A program made the position numbers and the translations under genes. A model generated the notes under the pieces. That model saw nothing but the letters and a program-made list of their open reading frames with translations, had not been told where the DNA came from and ran no database searches. Positions 40,086-50,584 of a stretch of 64,000 nucleotides of DNA are shown here, in pieces. Numbering within the stretch: the stretch's first letter is position 1; every line of letters starts with the position of its first letter. The stretch is from Terriglobales bacterium. Lineage in GTDB: Bacteria; Acidobacteriota; Terriglobia; Terriglobales; SCQP01. The stretch is taken from assembly GCA_025451775.1 (NCBI GenBank), contig JANWJU010000081.1, positions 11,696 through 75,695 of the forward strand. Direction: 5' to 3'.

Positions 40086-40766
40086 GTGCAAGTGGAACAT
40101 AAGGTCAAAAAAGAGCTGGAGATGCTGTTACGGCGGCGGGGCTTGGGAGCCACCCTGGACCGGCACCGCACGCAGGGCGCGAGCGCGCCGGCGGGGGCGT
40201 GGGATGAACTGCGGGGCGGCACCATCACCGAGATCGTGCCTGAAGCACGGGACGCGGCGGGGGTGACGAGCCTGGCTCTGTACCTCACGGCTCGGCATGG
40301 AGGGGACGAATGGCGGGCGTGGGTCGATCCACAGGACCGGTTCGATCCAGATTCGGCCGAACGGGCGGGGCTGAAACTCGACAACGTGCTGTGGTTGCGA
40401 GGCGGCACGGCGGAGATGGCGCTGGAAGGGGCGCAGCAGATCGTCCAAGCGGGGCGGTTCCGGGTGGTGGTGATCGATTTTCTGGAGCAGGAGAAGGCGG
40501 GGCGGCTGGCGCGTGCGGTGTGGTTCCGGCTGCTGCGGGCGGTGGAACGGGAGGGGCAGGCGAGCGTGCTGGTGCTGGGAACGCAGCCGCTCCCTGGCAC
40601 CTTCGCGGAGCGGGTGCTGGCGGTGGGGTACGAGTCGACGCGGTGGGTGGGGAGCGGTTATGTGCGGTTAGCAGGGGTACGGATGCGGGTGCAGACGGTG
40701 GGGGCACGGCGAGGGCCGGAGAGCGAGCGGCGGGCGGCGGTGAGATCGGAGGAGTTCGTGGCATGA
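40086..40766 (+). CDS. imuA: ImuA-like RecA-fold protein
   Basis: LRGGTITEI..GVTSLAL (degenerate Walker A), AWVDP.D.FDP.SA..AG, VVVIDF; first gene of the imuB/dnaE2 operon. Confidence 0.8.
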   Translation: MQVEHKVKKELEMLLRRRGLGATLDRHRTQGASAPAGAWDELRGGTITEIVPEARDAAGVTSLALYLTARHGGDEWRAWVDPQDRFDPDSAERAGLKLDNVLWLRGGTAEMALEGAQQIVQAGRFRVVVIDFLEQEKAGRLARAVWFRLLRAVEREGQASVLVLGTQPLPGTFAERVLAVGYESTRWVGSGYVRLAGVRMRVQTVGARRGPESERRAAVRSEEFVA

Positions 40767-42244
40767 GCGGGTTTTTGGCAGCCTGGGTGCCAGCGTTTGC
40801 CTTACAGGCTGCGGGTGGATTGGGCCCGCATCCGGCGGCGGCGTGGGAGCGGCAGGGGGTGTTGGAGCTGGTGGTGAGCGCCAATCCCGGGGCGCGCGCG
40901 GCGGGGGTGCGCACGGGGATGGCGGTGGCGGAGGCGCAGGGGCGGTGTCCACAACTGCAGTTGTGGCGGCGGGATGCCAGGGGCGAGCAGACGCTGGCGG
41001 CGCGGCTATGGGAAGAAGCGGGGAGGATTTCGCCACGGGTGCAGGCGGTGGGTCCGGATTTGGTGGTGATCGATTGCACCGGCGTGGAACGTCTGCAGGG
41101 GACGGCAGAGGCGGCGGGAAGGCGGCTGGCGGAGGCGATGGCCCAGGGAGGATGGCGCGTGCGCCTCGGCACCGGCGCACACGCCACGGCGGCGCTGCTC
41201 GCGGTCAAAAGCGGGCTGGGGCGGATTGCGCCGGGCCAGGAGCAGGCCACGCTGGCGGCGCTGCCGGTGACGTATTTGCGTAATGGCATCTCCAAGCTGC
41301 CTGCAGATGAGGGCACGGAAGAAGTGCTGCGGGTGCTGGAGGGGTGGGGGGTGCGGACGCTGGGGGCGTTCGCCGCCCTGCCGGCGGCGGAGGTTGCGGC
41401 GCGGATGGGGGCGGTGGGCGTCCGGCTGCACAGCGCCGCACGGGGAGAGGCGGCGGAGCGGTTCGAGGCGGCGGCCGAGCCGGGGCGGGTTCTGGAATGC
41501 CATGAGGTTTTGGATCCGCCGATTAACGACGGGGAGAGAATGCGGGCGGCATTGGAGCGGGCGGTGGCGGGGCTGCGAGTGGAACTGGAACGGCAGGACC
41601 GGGTGGTGGAGCATGGCACGGTGCGGCTCCAACGCGACCGCGGGGGAGTGGCGGAATATGAGCGTTCGTTTGCGGTGCCGACGCGGGATGGCCGGGCACT
41701 GGTGGAGCAGTTGCTGCATGTAATCGAGCAGCAGCCGCCGGGGGGGTGGATCGAACGGTTGCAACTGCAATTGCGATTGACGCGGGCGCGGCGGGTGCAG
41801 GGGCATTTGTTCGCGACCGCAGTGGTGGAGAAGGAGAAGACGGCGCGGCTGCTGGAGCGGCTGGGGGCGATCTGGAATGGAGAAGGCGTGGGGACAGCGC
41901 AGAGGATGGATACGTATCGTTCGGGAGCCTTTGAGATGCGACCTTTTGCGCCCTCTGATCACGAGGTGGCGCGCCACTTTTCAGAAGAACGGGAGGACGC
42001 ACCGCGATTGAGCCTCCGGCGGTTCCGTCCGCCCAAGCGGTGGCAGGCGGGGATGGGAGAGATTGTGCGGCGCGCGGGGCCATGGCGCAGCCGGGGAGGG
42101 TGGTGGCGAAAGGCGGGAGAAGGCTGGGCCGAGGACGAGTGGGACGCCGAGATCCGGTTTCCAGGGCGGAAGCAGAGCGGGTTGTACCGGCTACGGCATG
42201 ACCTGGAGGGGGGAGGCTGGTACATTGCCGGTCAGTACGATTGA
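40763..42244 (+). CDS. imuB: ImuB, inactive Y-family polymerase
   Basis: ARAAGVRTGMAVAEA..CP; WGVRTLG.FAALP; clamp motif QGHLF; GPWR..GGWW..DEWD..YD tail; no catalytic Asp at the N terminus. Confidence 0.85.
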   Translation: MSGFLAAWVPAFALQAAGGLGPHPAAAWERQGVLELVVSANPGARAAGVRTGMAVAEAQGRCPQLQLWRRDARGEQTLAARLWEEAGRISPRVQAVGPDLVVIDCTGVERLQGTAEAAGRRLAEAMAQGGWRVRLGTGAHATAALLAVKSGLGRIAPGQEQATLAALPVTYLRNGISKLPADEGTEEVLRVLEGWGVRTLGAFAALPAAEVAARMGAVGVRLHSAARGEAAERFEAAAEPGRVLECHEVLDPPINDGERMRAALERAVAGLRVELERQDRVVEHGTVRLQRDRGGVAEYERSFAVPTRDGRALVEQLLHVIEQQPPGGWIERLQLQLRLTRARRVQGHLFATAVVEKEKTARLLERLGAIWNGEGVGTAQRMDTYRSGAFEMRPFAPSDHEVARHFSEEREDAPRLSLRRFRPPKRWQAGMGEIVRRAGPWRSRGGWWRKAGEGWAEDEWDAEIRFPGRKQSGLYRLRHDLEGGGWYIAGQYD

Positions 42245-42269
42245 TGGGTGGGTGGAGGAGATCACAACC

Positions 42270-42950
42270 ATGTGCGGACGATTCACGTTGACGCGGCCGG
42301 TGGATGAGATCACGCGGCATTTTGGGACGGAGGCGGTCCAGGGAGCTAGCGGGCAAGCCCGCTACAACATCGCTCCGACGCAAAACATCTACGCGGTCCG
42401 CGGCAACGGCAGGAGAACGTTAAGCGAGCTGCGGTGGGGACTGATTCCAGGTTGGAGCCGGGACGGCAAGATGAAGTCGCTGCTCATCAACGCCCGGGCG
42501 GAGACGCTTACCGAGAAGCCGGCGTTTCGTGAGTGCGTGGCCACGCGGCGATGCCTGATACCCGCGGATGGGTTCTATGAATGGACCCACGCGCCCGGCG
42601 GGGGGAAGAAGCAGCCGTGGCATATCGGGCTCCAGGACAGTTCCCTGTTTGCGTTTGCCGGATTGTGGGACCGCTGGCAGGGGATCGAGAGCTGCACCAT
42701 CATTACCACCCGTGCCAACGAAGCCGTGGCGAAGCTGCATGACCGGATGCCGGTGATTGTGCCGTCCGCCGGCTACGATGCCTGGCTGGAGGCCGCCGTG
42801 CGCGAGGCGCTGGCGCTGCTGCAGGCGTATCCGGCGGAGGAGATGCGGATGTATCCGGTCTCGGGGCTGGTGTCGGGAACGAAGAACGATGAGCCGGCGT
42901 GCCGGGAGCCGTTGCGGGTGAGCCAGGCGCCCCCACCATTGAGGTTCTGA
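42270..42950 (+). CDS. SOS response-associated peptidase (SRAP/YedK/HMCES abasic-site protein)
   Basis: MCGRF, RYNIAPTQ, INARAE, DGFYEW, HDRMP; GGAGG RBS. Confidence 0.93.
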   Translation: MCGRFTLTRPVDEITRHFGTEAVQGASGQARYNIAPTQNIYAVRGNGRRTLSELRWGLIPGWSRDGKMKSLLINARAETLTEKPAFRECVATRRCLIPADGFYEWTHAPGGGKKQPWHIGLQDSSLFAFAGLWDRWQGIESCTIITTRANEAVAKLHDRMPVIVPSAGYDAWLEAAVREALALLQAYPAEEMRMYPVSGLVSGTKNDEPACREPLRVSQAPPPLRF

Positions 42951-42951
42951 G

Positions 42952-45900
42952 ATGAGTGCTTACGTGGAGCTGCGGGCGCGGAGTGCTTTCAGCTTTCTCG
43001 AGGGGGCCAGCGCGCCGGAGACCGTGGCGGAGGTGGGTGCGGAACTGGGGATGGCGGCCATGGCGCTGGTGGACCGGGGCGGGGTGTACGGGGCGCCGCG
43101 GTTCCACAAAGCGATGCGGCAGCTGGGGCTGCGGCCCATTGTGGGAGCGGAAATTCCACTCGACGACGGCACGCGGCTACCGTTACTGGCGGAGAACCGC
43201 GCCGGGTACAACAACCTGTGCCGGCTGCTGAGCCAGATGCATCTGCGCGCGCGTCCCGCTTGCGGGCAGGCCGGGCCGGGGTCCCCATTCGCCCCAACCC
43301 GGCCTGCCCGCAAGGGGGAGGGGCGCTGCCGGTTGGAGGAAGTCGAGGAGTTCAGCCCGGGGTTGGTGTGCCTGACCGGGGGCGATAGTGGGCCGCTGGC
43401 GGCGGCGGTGGGGCGGGGCGAGGGCCGGGATGTGCTGGAACGGCTCACGCACTGGTTTGGGCGGGGGCAGGTGTACGTGGAGATCTCGCGGCATTACCTC
43501 GATCCGCAGGAGCGGCTGAACGCCCGCATGCGGGAACTGGCGGATGCGATGCAACTGCCGGTGGTGGCCACCAATGCAGTGCAGTACGCACGGCGGGAGG
43601 CGAAGCCGGTGGCGGATGTGTTCGCATGCCTGCGCCACCGGGTGCGGCTGGATACGGCGGGACGGCGGCTGGAGGCCAACGCCGAGCGCTTCCTGAAATC
43701 TCCGGCGGCGATGGCGCGGCTGTTCCGAGATTATCCGGCAGCGATCGCGCACACTGCCGAGGTGGCGGAGAAGCTGCAGTTCCAGCTCGATGATCTGGGC
43801 TACCGCTTTCCGCGGGCGGCGGTGCCGGAGGGGGAGACGGCGGCGGCGCATCTGCGGCAGCGGGTGGAGCGGGGGGCGATGCGGAGGTATGGGAGCAACA
43901 GGAAGGGGGGCAACGGAAGTCTGGCGGAGCGGGCGCGGCGGCAGATCGAGCGGGAGCTGCAATTAATCGAGAAGCTGGGGCTCGAGGGGTACTTCCTAAT
44001 CGTGGATGACATTGTGGAGTTTTGCCGCCAGGAAGGGATTTTGGCGCAGGGGCGGGGCTCGGCGGCGAACAGCGCGGTGTGCTACAGCCTGGGTATTACC
44101 GCGGTTGATCCGGTGGGAATGGAACTGCTGTTTGAGCGGTTCCTGTCGGAGGAGCGGGGGGAGTGGCCGGATATCGACATCGATCTGCCGAGCGGGGCGC
44201 GGCGGGAGCGGGTGATTCAGCACCTGTACGAGCGCTACGGGCCGCACGGGGCGGCGATGACGGCGAACGTGATCACCTACCGGGGGCGGAGCGCGGCACG
44301 GGAAATGGGCAAGGTGCTGGACCTGGCCGACGAGACGGTTGCCCGGCTGCTGCACGCGATCGCGCGGATGGAAGCGGGCGCGACGCAGGCGGAGGCACTG
44401 AGCAACGCCGGGGTGGATGCGCAGCATCCGCGGGTACGGCATTTTTTGAATCTGTGCCGGGCGGTGCAGGATTTGCCGCGGCACCTGGGGCAGCACTCGG
44501 GAGGGATGATTTTCTCGGACTCCCGGCTGGACAGCATTGTTCCACTAGAGAACGCGAGCATGGACGATCGGGTGGTGGTGCAGTGGGACAAGGATGATTG
44601 CGCCGACTTGGGGATTATCAAAGTCGACCTGCTGGGGCTGGGGATGATGGCGGTACTGCAGGACGCGATGGAGCAGTTGCGGCCTCCGGGGGTAGCGGTT
44701 AACTCGGCCGAGGCGCTGGATTTGGCGCAGTTCCCTGCCGAGGATCCGGCGGTGTACGCGATGCTGCGGCGGGCGGACACGATTGGGGTGTTCCAGGTGG
44801 AGAGCCGGGCGCAGATGGCGACGCTGCCGCGGCTGCAGCCGCGGACGTTTTACGATCTGGTGGTGGAGGTGGGGTTGATCCGTCCGGGCCCGGTGGCGGG
44901 AAAGATGGTGCATCCGTATCTGGAGCGGCGGGCGGGGCGGCAGGCGGTGAGTTATCCGCACCCGGTGCTAGAGCCGATTCTGAAGCGGACCCTGGGGGTG
45001 CCGCTGTTTCAGGAACAGCTATTGCGGATGGCGATGGCAGCGGCGGGGTTCAGCGGCGGGGAGGCGGAGGAGCTGCGGCGGGCGTTTGGGTTCAAGCGGG
45101 CGGAAGCGAAGATGAGCACGGTGGAAGCGAAGCTGCGCGCCGGGATGGCGGGGCGCGGGATCACGGGGGAGGCGGCGGAGACGATTGCGGGGTTTGTGAC
45201 ATCGTTCGCGCTGTACGGGTTTCCGGAGTCGCACGCGGCGAGCTTCGCGCTGCTGGTGTATGCGTCGGCGTATTTGAAGGTCCACCATCCGGCGGAGTTT
45301 TACGCGGCGTTGCTGAACAACCAGCCCATGGGGTTTTATTCGCCCGCCACGCTGGTGCAGGATGCGCAGCGGCACGGGGTCGAGATGCTGCCAGTGGCGG
45401 TGGAGGATTCCGATTGGGAGTGCACCGTGGTGGGGCGGCGGCCGCCGGTGGTGCGGCTGGGGTTGCGGTACGCGGTGGGGTTGGGGCAGGAAAGCGGGGA
45501 GCGGATTGCGGCGGAGCGGCGGCGGGGGCGGTTCACGTCGCTGGACGATCTCCGGCGGCGGACGGGGATGCATAAGAGCGAAGCGCGGCTGCTGGGGGAG
45601 TTGGGGGGGCTGCCGGGCGCGGAGCGACGGGAGGCGCTGTGGCAAGTGGAGCGGGCGTGGCGGCCGGCGGGGCCATTGTATGAGGAAGATGCGGCAGCAA
45701 GCGCCAGCCCCTTAACCGCGATGAGCACCAAGGAGATGATGCAGGCGGATTTCCAGCGCTCGGGGCTGACGCTAGGGCCGCATCCGTTCGCCCTGCGGCG
45801 GCGGGAGTTGGAGCGGCAAGGCGTGCGGACGGCAGCCGAGATCCGGGCCATGAGTTCAGGGCGGCGGGTGGCGGTAGCGGGGATGGTGCTGGCCCGGCAG

Positions 45901-46143
45901 CGTCCGGGAACGGCCAAGGGCATCGTCTTCATGAGCCTGGAGGACGAGAGCGGGATCGCCAACATCATCGTGCCCAGCCGGACGTTCGAGGAACAGCGGT
46001 GGGTGTGCGTATCGGAGCGGGCGCTGTGGGTGGAGGGGGTGCTGCAGAACCGCGAGGGGGTGGTGCACGTCAAAGCGGAACGGATTTTACCGGTGCCGGA
46101 TTCCGAGGCGCTGCCGCTCGGGAGCGCTTACGATTTTCATTAA
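42952..46143 (+). CDS. dnaE2: Error-prone DNA polymerase DnaE2 (ImuC)
   Basis: SAFSFLEGAS, GRGSAANSAVCY, PDIDID, YGFPESHAASF, RQRPGTAKG; C-terminal YDFH. Confidence 0.96.
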   Translation: MSAYVELRARSAFSFLEGASAPETVAEVGAELGMAAMALVDRGGVYGAPRFHKAMRQLGLRPIVGAEIPLDDGTRLPLLAENRAGYNNLCRLLSQMHLRARPACGQAGPGSPFAPTRPARKGEGRCRLEEVEEFSPGLVCLTGGDSGPLAAAVGRGEGRDVLERLTHWFGRGQVYVEISRHYLDPQERLNARMRELADAMQLPVVATNAVQYARREAKPVADVFACLRHRVRLDTAGRRLEANAERFLKSPAAMARLFRDYPAAIAHTAEVAEKLQFQLDDLGYRFPRAAVPEGETAAAHLRQRVERGAMRRYGSNRKGGNGSLAERARRQIERELQLIEKLGLEGYFLIVDDIVEFCRQEGILAQGRGSAANSAVCYSLGITAVDPVGMELLFERFLSEERGEWPDIDIDLPSGARRERVIQHLYERYGPHGAAMTANVITYRGRSAAREMGKVLDLADETVARLLHAIARMEAGATQAEALSNAGVDAQHPRVRHFLNLCRAVQDLPRHLGQHSGGMIFSDSRLDSIVPLENASMDDRVVVQWDKDDCADLGIIKVDLLGLGMMAVLQDAMEQLRPPGVAVNSAEALDLAQFPAEDPAVYAMLRRADTIGVFQVESRAQMATLPRLQPRTFYDLVVEVGLIRPGPVAGKMVHPYLERRAGRQAVSYPHPVLEPILKRTLGVPLFQEQLLRMAMAAAGFSGGEAEELRRAFGFKRAEAKMSTVEAKLRAGMAGRGITGEAAETIAGFVTSFALYGFPESHAASFALLVYASAYLKVHHPAEFYAALLNNQPMGFYSPATLVQDAQRHGVEMLPVAVEDSDWECTVVGRRPPVVRLGLRYAVGLGQESGERIAAERRRGRFTSLDDLRRRTGMHKSEARLLGELGGLPGAERREALWQVERAWRPAGPLYEEDAAASASPLTAMSTKEMMQADFQRSGLTLGPHPFALRRRELERQGVRTAAEIRAMSSGRRVAVAGMVLARQRPGTAKGIVFMSLEDESGIANIIVPSRTFEEQRWVCVSERALWVEGVLQNREGVVHVKAERILPVPDSEALPLGSAYDFH

Positions 46144-46195
46144 GTGGCTCGCCACTTTTCGCTGGGTCGCTGCCGCAGGTCGCTTGAGGGCGGGC
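46144..46195 (+). repeat. Dispersed REP/MITE-like repeat, copy B (block 1)
   Basis: GTGGCTCGCCACTTTTCGCTGGGTCGCTGCCGCAGGTCGCTTGAGGGCGGGC directly after the dnaE2 TAA. Confidence 0.8.
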
Positions 46196-46233
46196 CTCGG
46201 CCGCCTCGATGCGACTATGATACGAACTGCGCC

Positions 46234-47073
46234 GTGCTGCTCTCAGAACAAGAACTCCGTAACGCGCTGGAGCCGTTGCTGGACCGGCTGCTGGTGGAGC
46301 GGTTCAAATACTTCCAGCTCCAGCTTGAGGCACGGCTGCAAAGCATGATGGATGCCGCGCGGGCGGAGGCGCCCGCAGCGGCGAGCGGCGGCGAGCTGAA
46401 TGCGGGGCTGGAACGGCTGCTGAAAGCCACGGATCCGAACCAAGTCTTTGAGGGGCTGTTTGCGGGCTCGGCGGAGCTGGCCGGAGAGGTGCGGGCCCTG
46501 CTTGTGCGCTACGAGGAAACGATCACCGTCTGGCGGCAAGAAGGTTTGGAGCTTCCCGAGCGGTTTACCGCAACCGAACAAAGCACGGTGTTGAAAGCGG
46601 GGGCGGGGCGGACGAGCGGGACGCATCCGGTACGGGTACGGGGGCAGATCGTCGGGATGCTGCACTGGCAAGCGGCGGAGGCCCCCACCGCGGATCGCTT
46701 GCAGCAACTCGATCTCATGCTGCACGCCGCCGGGTTGGCGTTGCTCGGATGGGGGCTAGCCGAAGCAGGGATGCCGGAACGCCAAACTGGACGCCAAGAG
46801 CCTTCAGCAGCGGTTTCGGAGGAGCAGGAACGGGCGCAAGCGTTCGCGCGCGTGCTGGCGGAGGATCTGGAACTGTACCTGCGGCGGGAACGACGGGCGG
46901 ATATCGGCGAAGCGGGCCGGCTCGAGGATGCTTGGGAACGGTTCCAGCCGGAGCTGGAACGGTGCCGGCGGTTTTACCTGGAACGGTATCCGAACGAGGC
47001 GGCGATCGGCGAGGAGGTCTTTCGGGAAGCGATCGCAAAACTGCAGGCGAGGAGGCCCCCACTTGCAATCTAA
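46234..47073 (+). CDS. Hypothetical protein (degenerate GAF-like middle, helical AxxFARxLxxDLxLY C-terminal domain)
   Basis: Protein-like composition from GTG 46234, with TATGAT upstream. Confidence 0.7.
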   Translation: MLLSEQELRNALEPLLDRLLVERFKYFQLQLEARLQSMMDAARAEAPAAASGGELNAGLERLLKATDPNQVFEGLFAGSAELAGEVRALLVRYEETITVWRQEGLELPERFTATEQSTVLKAGAGRTSGTHPVRVRGQIVGMLHWQAAEAPTADRLQQLDLMLHAAGLALLGWGLAEAGMPERQTGRQEPSAAVSEEQERAQAFARVLAEDLELYLRRERRADIGEAGRLEDAWERFQPELERCRRFYLERYPNEAAIGEEVFREAIAKLQARRPPLAI

Positions 47074-47119
47074 AGGGCGAAGTGATGAACTAGGATTACG
47101 CAGGAAAGGAGGTGGTCCA

Positions 47120-47179
47120 GTGGAGAAATCTGGCAGTAGTTCGGAAAGAAATTGGACTTGCGAGGTGGCTGAGGCTTAG
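47120..47179 (+). CDS. Candidate 19-aa small ORF (MEKSGSSSERNWTCEVAEA) in a structured small transcript
   Basis: Very long Shine-Dalgarno-like GAAAGGAGGTGGTCCAG ending at the GTG start. Confidence 0.45.
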   Translation: MEKSGSSSERNWTCEVAEA

Positions 47180-47259
47180 GCCTTCGTACCCCGTGGATCA
47201 GGGTCGCGGAAGCTGCGGCCAATCTCATCAGTCCACCGACAGAAAAGCCGATGGAAAAG

Positions 47260-47286
47260 CGAGGCCCCGGTTGCACCGGGGCCTCG
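47260..47286. terminator. GC-rich terminator-like hairpin (possibly bidirectional)
   Basis: CGAGGCCCCGGT-TGC-ACCGGGGCCTCG 12-bp stem, preceded by AAAA and followed by TTG. Confidence 0.7.
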
Positions 47287-47346
47287 TTGCATGTGTCCAA
47301 GCGTTGTCGGAGCACGGTCGGGCGTGGTACATTGGGGTTCTCCCCA

Positions 47347-47421
47347 GCGGGAGTAACTCAGTGGTAGAGTGCGACCTTGCCAAGGTCGAAGTCGCGGGTT
47401 CGAATCCCGTCTCCCGCTCCA
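47347..47421 (+). tRNA. tRNA-Gly (GCC)
   Basis: GCGGGAG acceptor stem, CGACC-TTGCCAA-GGTCG anticodon arm, GGTTCGAATCC, encoded CCA; TGgTACATT -10 upstream. Confidence 0.97.
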
Positions 47422-47727
47422 AAAATCCTTCAGAAATCAGTGCTTGCCACCACAGAGATGATGTGATAAACATCTGCCTGTGAGAACACTCGCCTCACGG
47501 GGAACCCAATGCATGCGCGTATCTGCGGCGCATTGGCGGTGCTGGACCTGGTGTTGCGCCGGGGGGCGCCGGTGATGGGACGGCAGCCGCCAGCGCCAGC
47601 TCCCAATGACCAGAGTTTAAGGCAGTGGCTGCATCTGCCGCGGCGCACCGGCAAAATCGCGGCTCGCCACTTTCCAAAGGAAACGGCGCCGGAGGCGGCA
47701 CCCCAGGTGGCGAAGCCGGCGAGCACG

Positions 47728-47849
47728 GTGGCTCGCTACTTTTCGCTGGGTCGCTCCCGCTGGTCGCTTGAGGGCGGGCTTCGATTGGCGGCGCACGAGC
47801 GGCACTGCCGCTCGTTGCCCCGCTCTGCTCGTGGCATCTCCAAGCTGCC
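47728..47849 (+). repeat. Dispersed REP/MITE-like repeat, copy C (block 1 + block 2)
   Basis: Block 1 at 47728-47779; block 2 GCCCCGCTCTGCTCGTGGCATCTCCAAGCTGCC at 47817-47849; extra fragment at 47659-47673. Confidence 0.8.
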
Positions 47850-50517: not shown

Positions 50518-50555
50518 GTGGCTCGCCACTTTTCGCCGGGCCGTCCCGCTGGTCG
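50518..50555 (+). repeat. Dispersed REP/MITE-like repeat, copy D (degenerate block 1)
   Basis: GTGGCTCGCCACTTTTCGCCGGGCCGTCCCGCTGGTCG. Confidence 0.7.
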
Positions 50556-50584
50556 GCGGAGGCGACGCGTACAATGGAAGCAAC

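Follow-up and report, generated by a model that had tools for sequence, protein, structure and literature searches.

How a cell would use a small RNA whose ribosome-binding site can pair with 17 nucleotides of the 16S rRNA tail, and whether the RNA, the peptide or the act of translation matters, is the question raised by one locus in the 64,000-nucleotide stretch of Terriglobales DNA that we analysed (hereafter the window). An earlier note, made without database searches, had proposed a separate small unit built for 30S binding, acting as a ribosome trap or encoding a highly translated micropeptide. We find that the locus, at about 47098-47290, is a genuine, conserved RNA gene of about 190 nt with a tiny reading frame that ends inside an RNA fold (Table 1). 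The view of a separate unit built for 30S binding is supported as a reading, binding being argued by analogy with the alphaproteobacterial RNA rreB. The promoter, the helices that connect the end of the frame to a 3' arm and a second Shine-Dalgarno (SD)-like hexamer, GAGGTG, ahead of the stop had escaped the earlier note.

Table 1. Features of the element and its surroundings (positions in the window)
Feature	Position	Strand	Remarks
-35-like hexamer TTGCAA	47063..47068	+	overlaps 3' end of the upstream 309-aa ORF; TTGC/TTGA at the same spacing in 19/19 family loci
Extended -10-like TG-n-TGAACT	47083..47091	+	17 nt after -35; TG kept in 15/19 family loci; putative, from conservation
Predicted transcription start A47098 and short leader ACRC	47098..47103	+	conservation starts here in three alignments
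Extended SD	47104..47120	+	17 nt complementary to 16S 3' end; last base is base 1 of the start codon
19-codon ORF, GTG start	47120..47179	+	C-terminal W-T-C-E-V-A-E-A-stop
Helix P0	47114..47158	+	47114-47120 with 47152-47158; may cage SD extension and start behind the Trp-Thr codons
Second SD-like hexamer GAGGTG (Glu-Val codons)	47162..47167	+	9 nt before stop
Helix P1	47164..47237	+	47164-47171 with 47229-47237, one bulge; ORF end paired to 3' arm
Helix P2	47173..47220	+	47173-47182 with 47211-47220; spans stop codon, closes a length-variable insert
Internal-loop strand, AAU-pyrimidines, between P2 and P1	47221..47228	+	AAT nearly invariant, 46 rows, three phyla
12-bp terminator-like hairpin	47260..47286	+	no plus-strand U run in the window copy
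Neighbour outside the element: -10-like box and tRNA-Gly(GCC)	47325..47421	+	tRNA is 47347-47421

The 17-mer GAAAGGAGGTGGTCCAG runs into the GTG that opens the 19 codons and had been read as the complement of the 16S 3' end with a single G-U pair. Against the 16S ends of one genome of the same genus (L296) and two of the same family (L295, L299), the host metagenome-assembled genome (82% complete) having no assembled 16S, 17 of 17 positions pair, one as G-U, and the match extends well beyond GGAGG. The claim that this complement exceeds other ribosome-binding sites is borne out genome-wide: a run of 17 pairs with the tail occurs at one position only on both strands of the 2.86-Mb genome, and the runner-up has 14. 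The duplex energy is -21.2 kcal/mol with a 13-nt free tail and -31.0 kcal/mol with 17 nt. Going by the established structure of 16S rRNA, three of the 17 pairs, the last ones, draw on the end of helix 45 and on base 1 of the start codon; about 13-14 pairs therefore represent the realistic duplex in an initiating 30S subunit. Covariation between the G/A letter of the SD and the base after the Trp codon was rejected; the count (G with TGGAC 14, A with TGGAT 32) is crude, confounded by lineage and shows a trend only.

A similar ribosome-binding site is carried by rreB, an RNA of unknown function that co-sediments with 30S subunits and is weakly translated, owing to its long SD and GTG, and whose half-life is 10 min with the start codon and 37 min without it (Hahn et al., RNA Biol 14:1353, PMC5711450). 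Because only the ribosome-binding site is held in common, the behaviour of rreB serves as an analogy for the window element.

The succession of promoter-like elements, RNA and terminator-like hairpin suggests that 47098-47290 is transcribed as a stand-alone unit. A strict consensus promoter scan missed the -35-like TTGCAA. In nine loci (L032, L033, L036, L037, L038, L040, L308, L314 and L316) a GC-rich structured stretch lies directly 5' of the SD in place of a nearby promoter, and transcripts there probably start further upstream. The 12-bp hairpin of the earlier note stands as a hairpin, but the scan calls it terminator-like on the minus strand only, because the plus strand of the window copy lacks the U run that most relatives have. 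The predicted transcript is more stable than 200 of 200 shuffles (z -2.86), much of which is owed to this hairpin. The tRNA-Gly downstream does have a -10 box of its own, as had been noted: an extended -10-like TGnTACATT at 47325-47333, echoed in relatives.

The upstream 309-aa ORF (46144-47073, plus strand) matched no Pfam family, and its true start probably lies downstream of 46144. The plus-strand ORFs at 40310-46143 we take, from their translations, to be Y-family-polymerase-like, SRAP-like and DnaE2-like (1063 aa), presumably an imuB-dnaE2-type mutagenesis cassette. A dispersed, REP-like intergenic repeat, GTGGCTCGC-ACTTTTCGC..., stands after genes at 46148-46210, 47722-47790 and 50518-50560; in one read run, probably of DNA, it drew hundreds-fold contig depth from other organisms. 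One low-depth contig of a probable DNA run carries a 9-nt in-frame gap in the ORF, too thin for use. The tmRNA gene lies about 1 kb or less from the element in loci L007 and L011 and 7 kb away in the window. A tRNA-Gly stands beside the gene in two unrelated classes, the window family (GCC) and the rreB class (TCC; 5/5 loci: L194, L202, L212, L221 and L229). Between gene and tRNA-Gly, a second conserved small element (L002:1722-1833, plus strand), made up of a terminator hairpin, the motif AACCCGTWAGCGCAC and a stem of GGGTT with AACCC, occurs in 12 of 19 family loci, three of them from unpublished genomes and one the distant locus; in 11 of these 12 its distance from the SD is 210-290 nt. This element was not found in the window genome, and its best Rfam score, to ar14, is 25.1 bits (cut-off 58.8).

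BLAST bore out conservation in relatives, detecting the window element in 18 of 24 same-family genomes (14 of 20 without the unpublished G004, G005, G013 and G023) and in 0 of 16 genomes of the sister family; there is one copy per genome. At the Rfam gathering score the window contains only tRNA and tmRNA. An Acidobacteria-specific Rfam motif, with Acido-1 and Acido-Lenti-1 as candidates, had been suspected; neither matched at the gathering score or among the 12 hits up to E 10, and homologues in Actinomycetota and Methylomirabilis speak against any such restriction. Two families align with the element end to end below their cut-offs: Ms_IGR-5 (RF02471; 18.5 bits, E 0.058, cut-off 45) and CC2171 (RF01867; 20 bits, cut-off 75), the latter matching only at the SD and the terminator.

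A pattern scan of species genomes returned at least 120 loci; the 80 that are titled comprise 74 from Actinomycetota, 4 from Acidobacteriota, 1 from Methylomirabilis and 1 from a Gammaproteobacteria bin that may be misassigned. Homology thus indicates that the element is not confined to Acidobacteria. Among 20 loci scanned, the Ms_IGR-5 cut-off was passed by 7 of actinobacterial type, the Methylomirabilis copy (L063, 67.7 bits) and two from the window's phylum (L028, 60 bits; L026, 50.6 bits), and six family loci fell below it. Model R1, built from 32 hand-picked rows (one from the unpublished G175) with the window family left out, has its sole match in the window at 47098-47239 (54.7 bits; E 3.3e-15, rough) and gives 31.7-65 bits to 18 of 18 family loci; where the SD is all that a locus has in common, the score is 8-16 bits. 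These scores indicate that the window element is a diverged Ms_IGR-5 homologue, below Rfam's formal cut-off and linked to the family via intermediate members. With 22 candidates scored per genome, R1 matched at least 17 of 151 genomes of the phylum, that of the window among them; for the sister family the figure is 4 of 11. One exact pattern gave 0 matches in viral contigs; a CC2171 search of 81 genomes centred on G325 gave none over the cut-off, and its two weak matches belong to the class of the window element.

A metagenome scan with the A-version of the SD returned at least 120 loci. Among the matches listed, the frame does not exceed 31 codons in 115 of 120, is long in 1 and runs off the contig in 4; the background expected for GTG frames closing at 12-31 codons is 0.29. 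By peptide, the 115 short-frame loci among the matches listed divide into 61 CC2171-like, 23 rreB-like, 11 that we assume from length to be rreR-like, 11 of the window class and 9 others. Two of the four CC2171-like loci scanned (L224, L167) pass the RF01867 cut-off, and the 5' end of the rreB-like group matches the rreB primers.

Ms_IGR-5, perhaps the scr4389 of Streptomyces, is filed by Rfam as an 'Actinobacteria sRNA', non-coding. RNA-seq supports it in S. lividans (PMC8079986), it forms a transcription unit in S. avermitilis (PMC8780764) and ribosome footprints are recorded in M. abscessus and M. smegmatis (PMC4974804). According to the M. abscessus tables of the last source, transcription of the homologue starts 2 nt before the Rfam-defined start, and RPKM values of 70 in RNA-seq and 3737 in ribosome profiling give it the top ratio (53) and the top footprint of 36 ncRNA rows; this ratio is no proof of translation, because several tRNAs exceed 100 in the same table, where 6C and F6 have footprints too. 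The peptide and DNA motifs did not occur in the supplements of two mycobacterial ribosome-profiling papers, files that may give coordinates only.

The 19-codon GTG frame proposed earlier is confirmed. Every family copy has the promoter-like -35 and extended -10 elements, a predicted start at ACRC, the SD and a frame of 15-22 codons, with indels in multiples of three, and in-frame stops are absent from 15 of 15 distinct 19-codon family copies. The class as a whole keeps a start codon, a frame of 11-22 codons and a fixed stop: in the species-genome scan, whose pattern fixed neither the stop nor third codon positions, exactly 9 nt separate GAGGTG from the stop that follows it in 120 of 120 loci among the matches listed, and start, frame and stop are kept in 17 of 17 model hits of the phylum sample. 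Picking 17 phylum loci on the 5' SD alone yielded 13 with the same ending, 3 ordinary long genes and 1 six-codon frame. A standard in-frame start is present in 152 of 161 loci; 6 lie outside the motif and 3 lack such a start under the rule used, including one real exception, the actinobacterial copy L135, and one double-counted locus, later resolved. Because the sampled genomes are kin, these locus counts overstate independence.

The uncorrected pN/pS is 0.96 over codons 2-11 (15 distinct family frames) and 0.87 over the variable codons of 49 frames of 12 codons. Selection appears to maintain the frame, the stop position and the fold, but hardly the peptide, most of which seems free of amino-acid selection. 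A highly translated micropeptide is unlikely given the former value and the lowering of translation by the same type of binding site in rreB. The C-terminal W-T-C/S-E-V-A, common to copies from Terriglobales to Mycobacterium, could nevertheless mean that the peptide is the product, its W-T-C/S-E-V-x-x-x end acting within the ribosomal exit tunnel or on a partner, with RNA features that do no more than hold the dose low. This would agree with pN/pS values of 0.43 and 0.29 over the last eight codons in two groups (uncorrected and confounded by RNA constraint) and with the argument of Hahn et al. from the lineage conservation of RreB and RreR (PMC5711450). The conserved codons are, however, located in helices and fixed as nucleotides: GAG GTG is invariant in 120 of 120 loci among the matches listed, whereas GTG makes up 416 of 874 Val codons in flanking ORFs, and the Thr of the motif is mostly ACA or ACT, which account for 35 of 660 Thr codons there. 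Length and sequence vary freely in the N-terminal part, several Acidobacteriota families have lost Trp-Thr, two distant copies (L235, L162) keep GAGGTG with the stop 8 or 11 nt later in another frame, and pN/pS in the 13-codon group (n=11) is 1.53 and 1.25 (uncorrected). As RreB and RreR are also unstructured, and overproduction of RreB had no growth effect (PMC5711450), we regard a peptide product as unlikely.

The fold is best supported for P1 and P2. In 32 rows from outside the family, 83.8% of their cells are paired and 10 of 17 pairs show double changes; the observed covariation was reached by 0 of 500 shuffles on four of five measures and by 25 of 500 on the fifth. The structure was drawn from these same sequences, which biases the comparison with slid controls in its favour. 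In 18 family rows (4 unpublished) 88.9% of the cells are paired, and covariation within the family alone is not above shuffles (101-337 of 500 as high). Taken singly, P1 covaries in the 32 non-family rows and is 94.4% paired in the 18 family rows, without covariation there; P2 has 7 of 10 pairs in the window copy and is 77.8% paired in the family and 75.2% outside it, where 5 pairs are doubly changed. The pairing probability of P1 in the window copy is 0.09, the forced fold reaching -80.7 kcal/mol against -81.5 for the minimum free energy (MFE) structure, a cost of 0.8. For P0, 98.4% of cells are paired in 18 rows with zero double changes, and the pairing probability is 0.06 in the window copy and above 0.5 in 7 of 19 family copies; these predictions are only suggestive of a cage around the SD extension and start.

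A P2 register shifted by two codons (47167-47175 with 47212-47220) and exclusive with P1 forms 8 of 9 pairs in the window and 6-9 of 9 in 19 family loci; it is 90.7% paired in the family, yet its covariation is below all shuffles. The nested stem reported earlier (47193-47198 with 47231-47236) did not hold up: it forms in the single-sequence MFE region, but sits in the length-variable insert, where 41.7% of its cells are paired in 18 family rows, like slid controls (15-45%). Pairing of the 3' arm with the 5' SD was rejected as a conserved switch, a probability above 0.5 being predicted for 1 of 19 copies in the family and 1 of 34 outside it.

The duplex of GAGGUG with the 16S tail has 7 bp (-10.7 kcal/mol), and the hexamer lies 8 nt from the last sense codon, inside the 5-9 nt quoted for SD spacing. 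Because its GGUG/CACC core is invariant and never covaries, a second-SD role is not separable from that of a protein- or structure-bound motif. A further hairpin, 3' of the 3' arm, can hold a GUCC that complements the Trp-Thr codons. This is so in 112 of 115 actinobacterial-group loci among the matches listed (control 26), in 9 of 27 family loci and in 11 of 13 other loci from Acidobacteriota (control 5), and in L026/L027 the two strands change together. The two strands may form a pseudoknot that the window family mostly lacks (examples L055, L063, L026-L029).

Could the RNA act by binding ribosomes in bulk, as a stoichiometric anti-anti-SD trap, storing or blocking 30S subunits during stress to the benefit of leaderless mRNAs? 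Its site is the strongest 16S complement of the genome, rreB stays on the 30S even without a start codon (PMC5711450), and the M. abscessus homologue has a high footprint value (PMC4974804). A pure trap would, however, need neither the conserved frame nor the stop, 20-fold rreB overexpression left growth unchanged with ribosomes far outnumbering rreB (PMC5711450), there is one copy per genome, and the M. abscessus homologue reaches an RPKM of 70 against 79,735 for tmRNA (PMC4974804). The trap suggested earlier is thus improbable.

We also give little credence to a trans-acting base-pairing RNA, whether its SD serves as a decoy for C/U-rich anti-SD sRNAs or translation sets its 3' arm and AAU loop free to bind target mRNAs in the manner of an sRNA. 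Complementarity beyond AGGAGG and the fixed stop would be left unexplained, and the C/U-rich conserved element that stands next in 12 of 19 family loci, with its weak ar14 score, was not found in the window genome; on the other side are the element's own predicted promoter and terminator, the conserved unpaired loop, a 3' arm ending in anti-SD-like CCACC and the filing of Ms_IGR-5 and CC2171 as sRNAs. A leader or attenuator for the downstream tRNA-Gly or gene is very improbable, for although tRNA-Gly(GCC) follows 12 of 14 family loci scanned, tRNA-Gly(TCC) adjoins the rreB-class loci and the window hairpin lacks a U run, the tRNA has its own -10-like box, no tRNA is near the other 2 family loci or 9 of 11 other Acidobacteriota loci, the frame has no Gly codon run, and the flanking genes are unrelated between lineages and often convergent, which disfavours a role in cis.

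The reading that we favour, and hold to be probable by a modest measure, is that of an rre-type ribosome-docking mini-mRNA of the Ms_IGR-5 structural class, acting as a translation-coupled RNA switch in which the act of translation matters rather than the peptide. Its complementarity, frame, stop position and covariation are observed. The element would be transcribed alone, as about 190 nt, and the purine-rich 5' part of the extended SD would seed pairing with the 16S tail and load the 30S subunit tightly. By analogy with rreB, the long duplex, the GUG and P0 would make initiation slow and yield little peptide. An elongating ribosome, given the geometry of the helices, would melt P1 and P2 on its way to the stop and free the 3' arm; the exposed second SD, at its initiation-like distance, could hypothetically re-pair with the 16S tail and delay release. 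Translation would also open the RNA to decay, again as for rreB, so that RNA level and fold might report the supply of active ribosomes, and any downstream output is likewise hypothetical. This mini-mRNA reading is supported by the 17/17 pairing and its uniqueness in the genome, the rreB-like layout of the binding site, the short frames at loci picked by their SD alone, the fixed stop spacing, the covariation of P1 and P2, the pN/pS of 0.96, the unrelated flanks and the M. abscessus footprints. It is weakened by the low equilibrium probabilities of P1 and P0 in the window copy, the lack of family-only covariation and the exception L135.

A wider proposal, which we advance tentatively and consider doubtful, is that Ms_IGR-5, CC2171, rreB, rreR and the window element form one ancient cross-phylum class of ribosome-handling RNAs. 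In the subclass of the window element, loading by the 5' super-SD and unzipping of P1/P2 would leave a ribosome held at the caged stop by the second SD, a dedicated post-termination complex by which slow-growing soil bacteria would store ribosomes or sense their capacity for termination and recycling.

The rre mini-mRNAs have so far been an alphaproteobacterial curiosity without an assigned function. By its layout, the window copy ties them to Ms_IGR-5, an RNA filed as non-coding that nevertheless keeps a start codon, frame and fixed stop in Actinomycetota, Acidobacteriota and Methylomirabilis. The rre question now reaches tractable hosts, such as M. smegmatis and Streptomyces, with separable features for mutation: the 5' SD, the start, the second SD, P1/P2 and the stop position. 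If the second SD does hold terminating ribosomes, this would be a new use of SD pairing.

The window RNA appears to be distantly related to an RNA of Actinobacteria that is catalogued as non-coding, and it resembles the little-understood rre mini-mRNAs. With Ms_IGR-5 it shares the 5' ACRC, the extended SD, the Trp-Thr-Cys-Glu-Val codons, the stop position, P1, P2 and the AAU loop. It differs in a frame of 19 rather than 12-13 codons, in a start directly after the SD rather than 15-17 nt from the first G of the SD, in the P1 bulge and in lacking the extra GUCC 3' hairpin able to pair with the Trp-Thr codons. CC2171, a Caulobacter sRNA Northern-validated in Methylorubrum (bioRxiv 10.1101/2022.01.24.477521), shares the 5' extended SD and GTG, and its loci L224 and L167 likewise have a small frame (22-25 codons), a 3' arm and a terminator hairpin; its 3' arm, however, is complementary to the start of the frame, whereas that of the window element is complementary to the end, and the peptides differ.

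The rre genes were reported only in Alphaproteobacteria (PMC5711450), and our literature search, which covered few subscription papers, found no paper placing them elsewhere or assigning an ORF to Ms_IGR-5. Like rreB and rreR, the window element would be a stand-alone unit of 165-190 nt, with a 17-nt 16S complement running into the first base of GTG, a 14-19-codon frame, the SD extension in a predicted hairpin cage and a tRNA-Gly neighbour. Of the marks of an rre gene, it has a complement of at least 16 nt upstream of a small ORF (judged on the 16S of relatives, the host's being unassembled), which runs into the GTG of a lineage-conserved frame. The conserved promoter-like and hairpin elements, recognised from sequence, may point to a transcript of its own. 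The rre complement is perfect, whereas that of the window element includes one G-U, and the second SD-like hexamer and the stop held in P1/P2 are not described in the text of PMC5711450. Similarity is limited to the ribosome-binding site: under R1, rreB-, rreR- and CC2171-type loci score 13.7-15.9 bits (L194 14.4, L184 15.1; rre-type loci down to 10.7) against 54.7 for the window, and the peptides are unrelated, which places the element outside rreB and rreR as sequence families (14-aa and 18-aa genes). To the rre-like genes the window thus adds a lineage and evidence, not a new kind.
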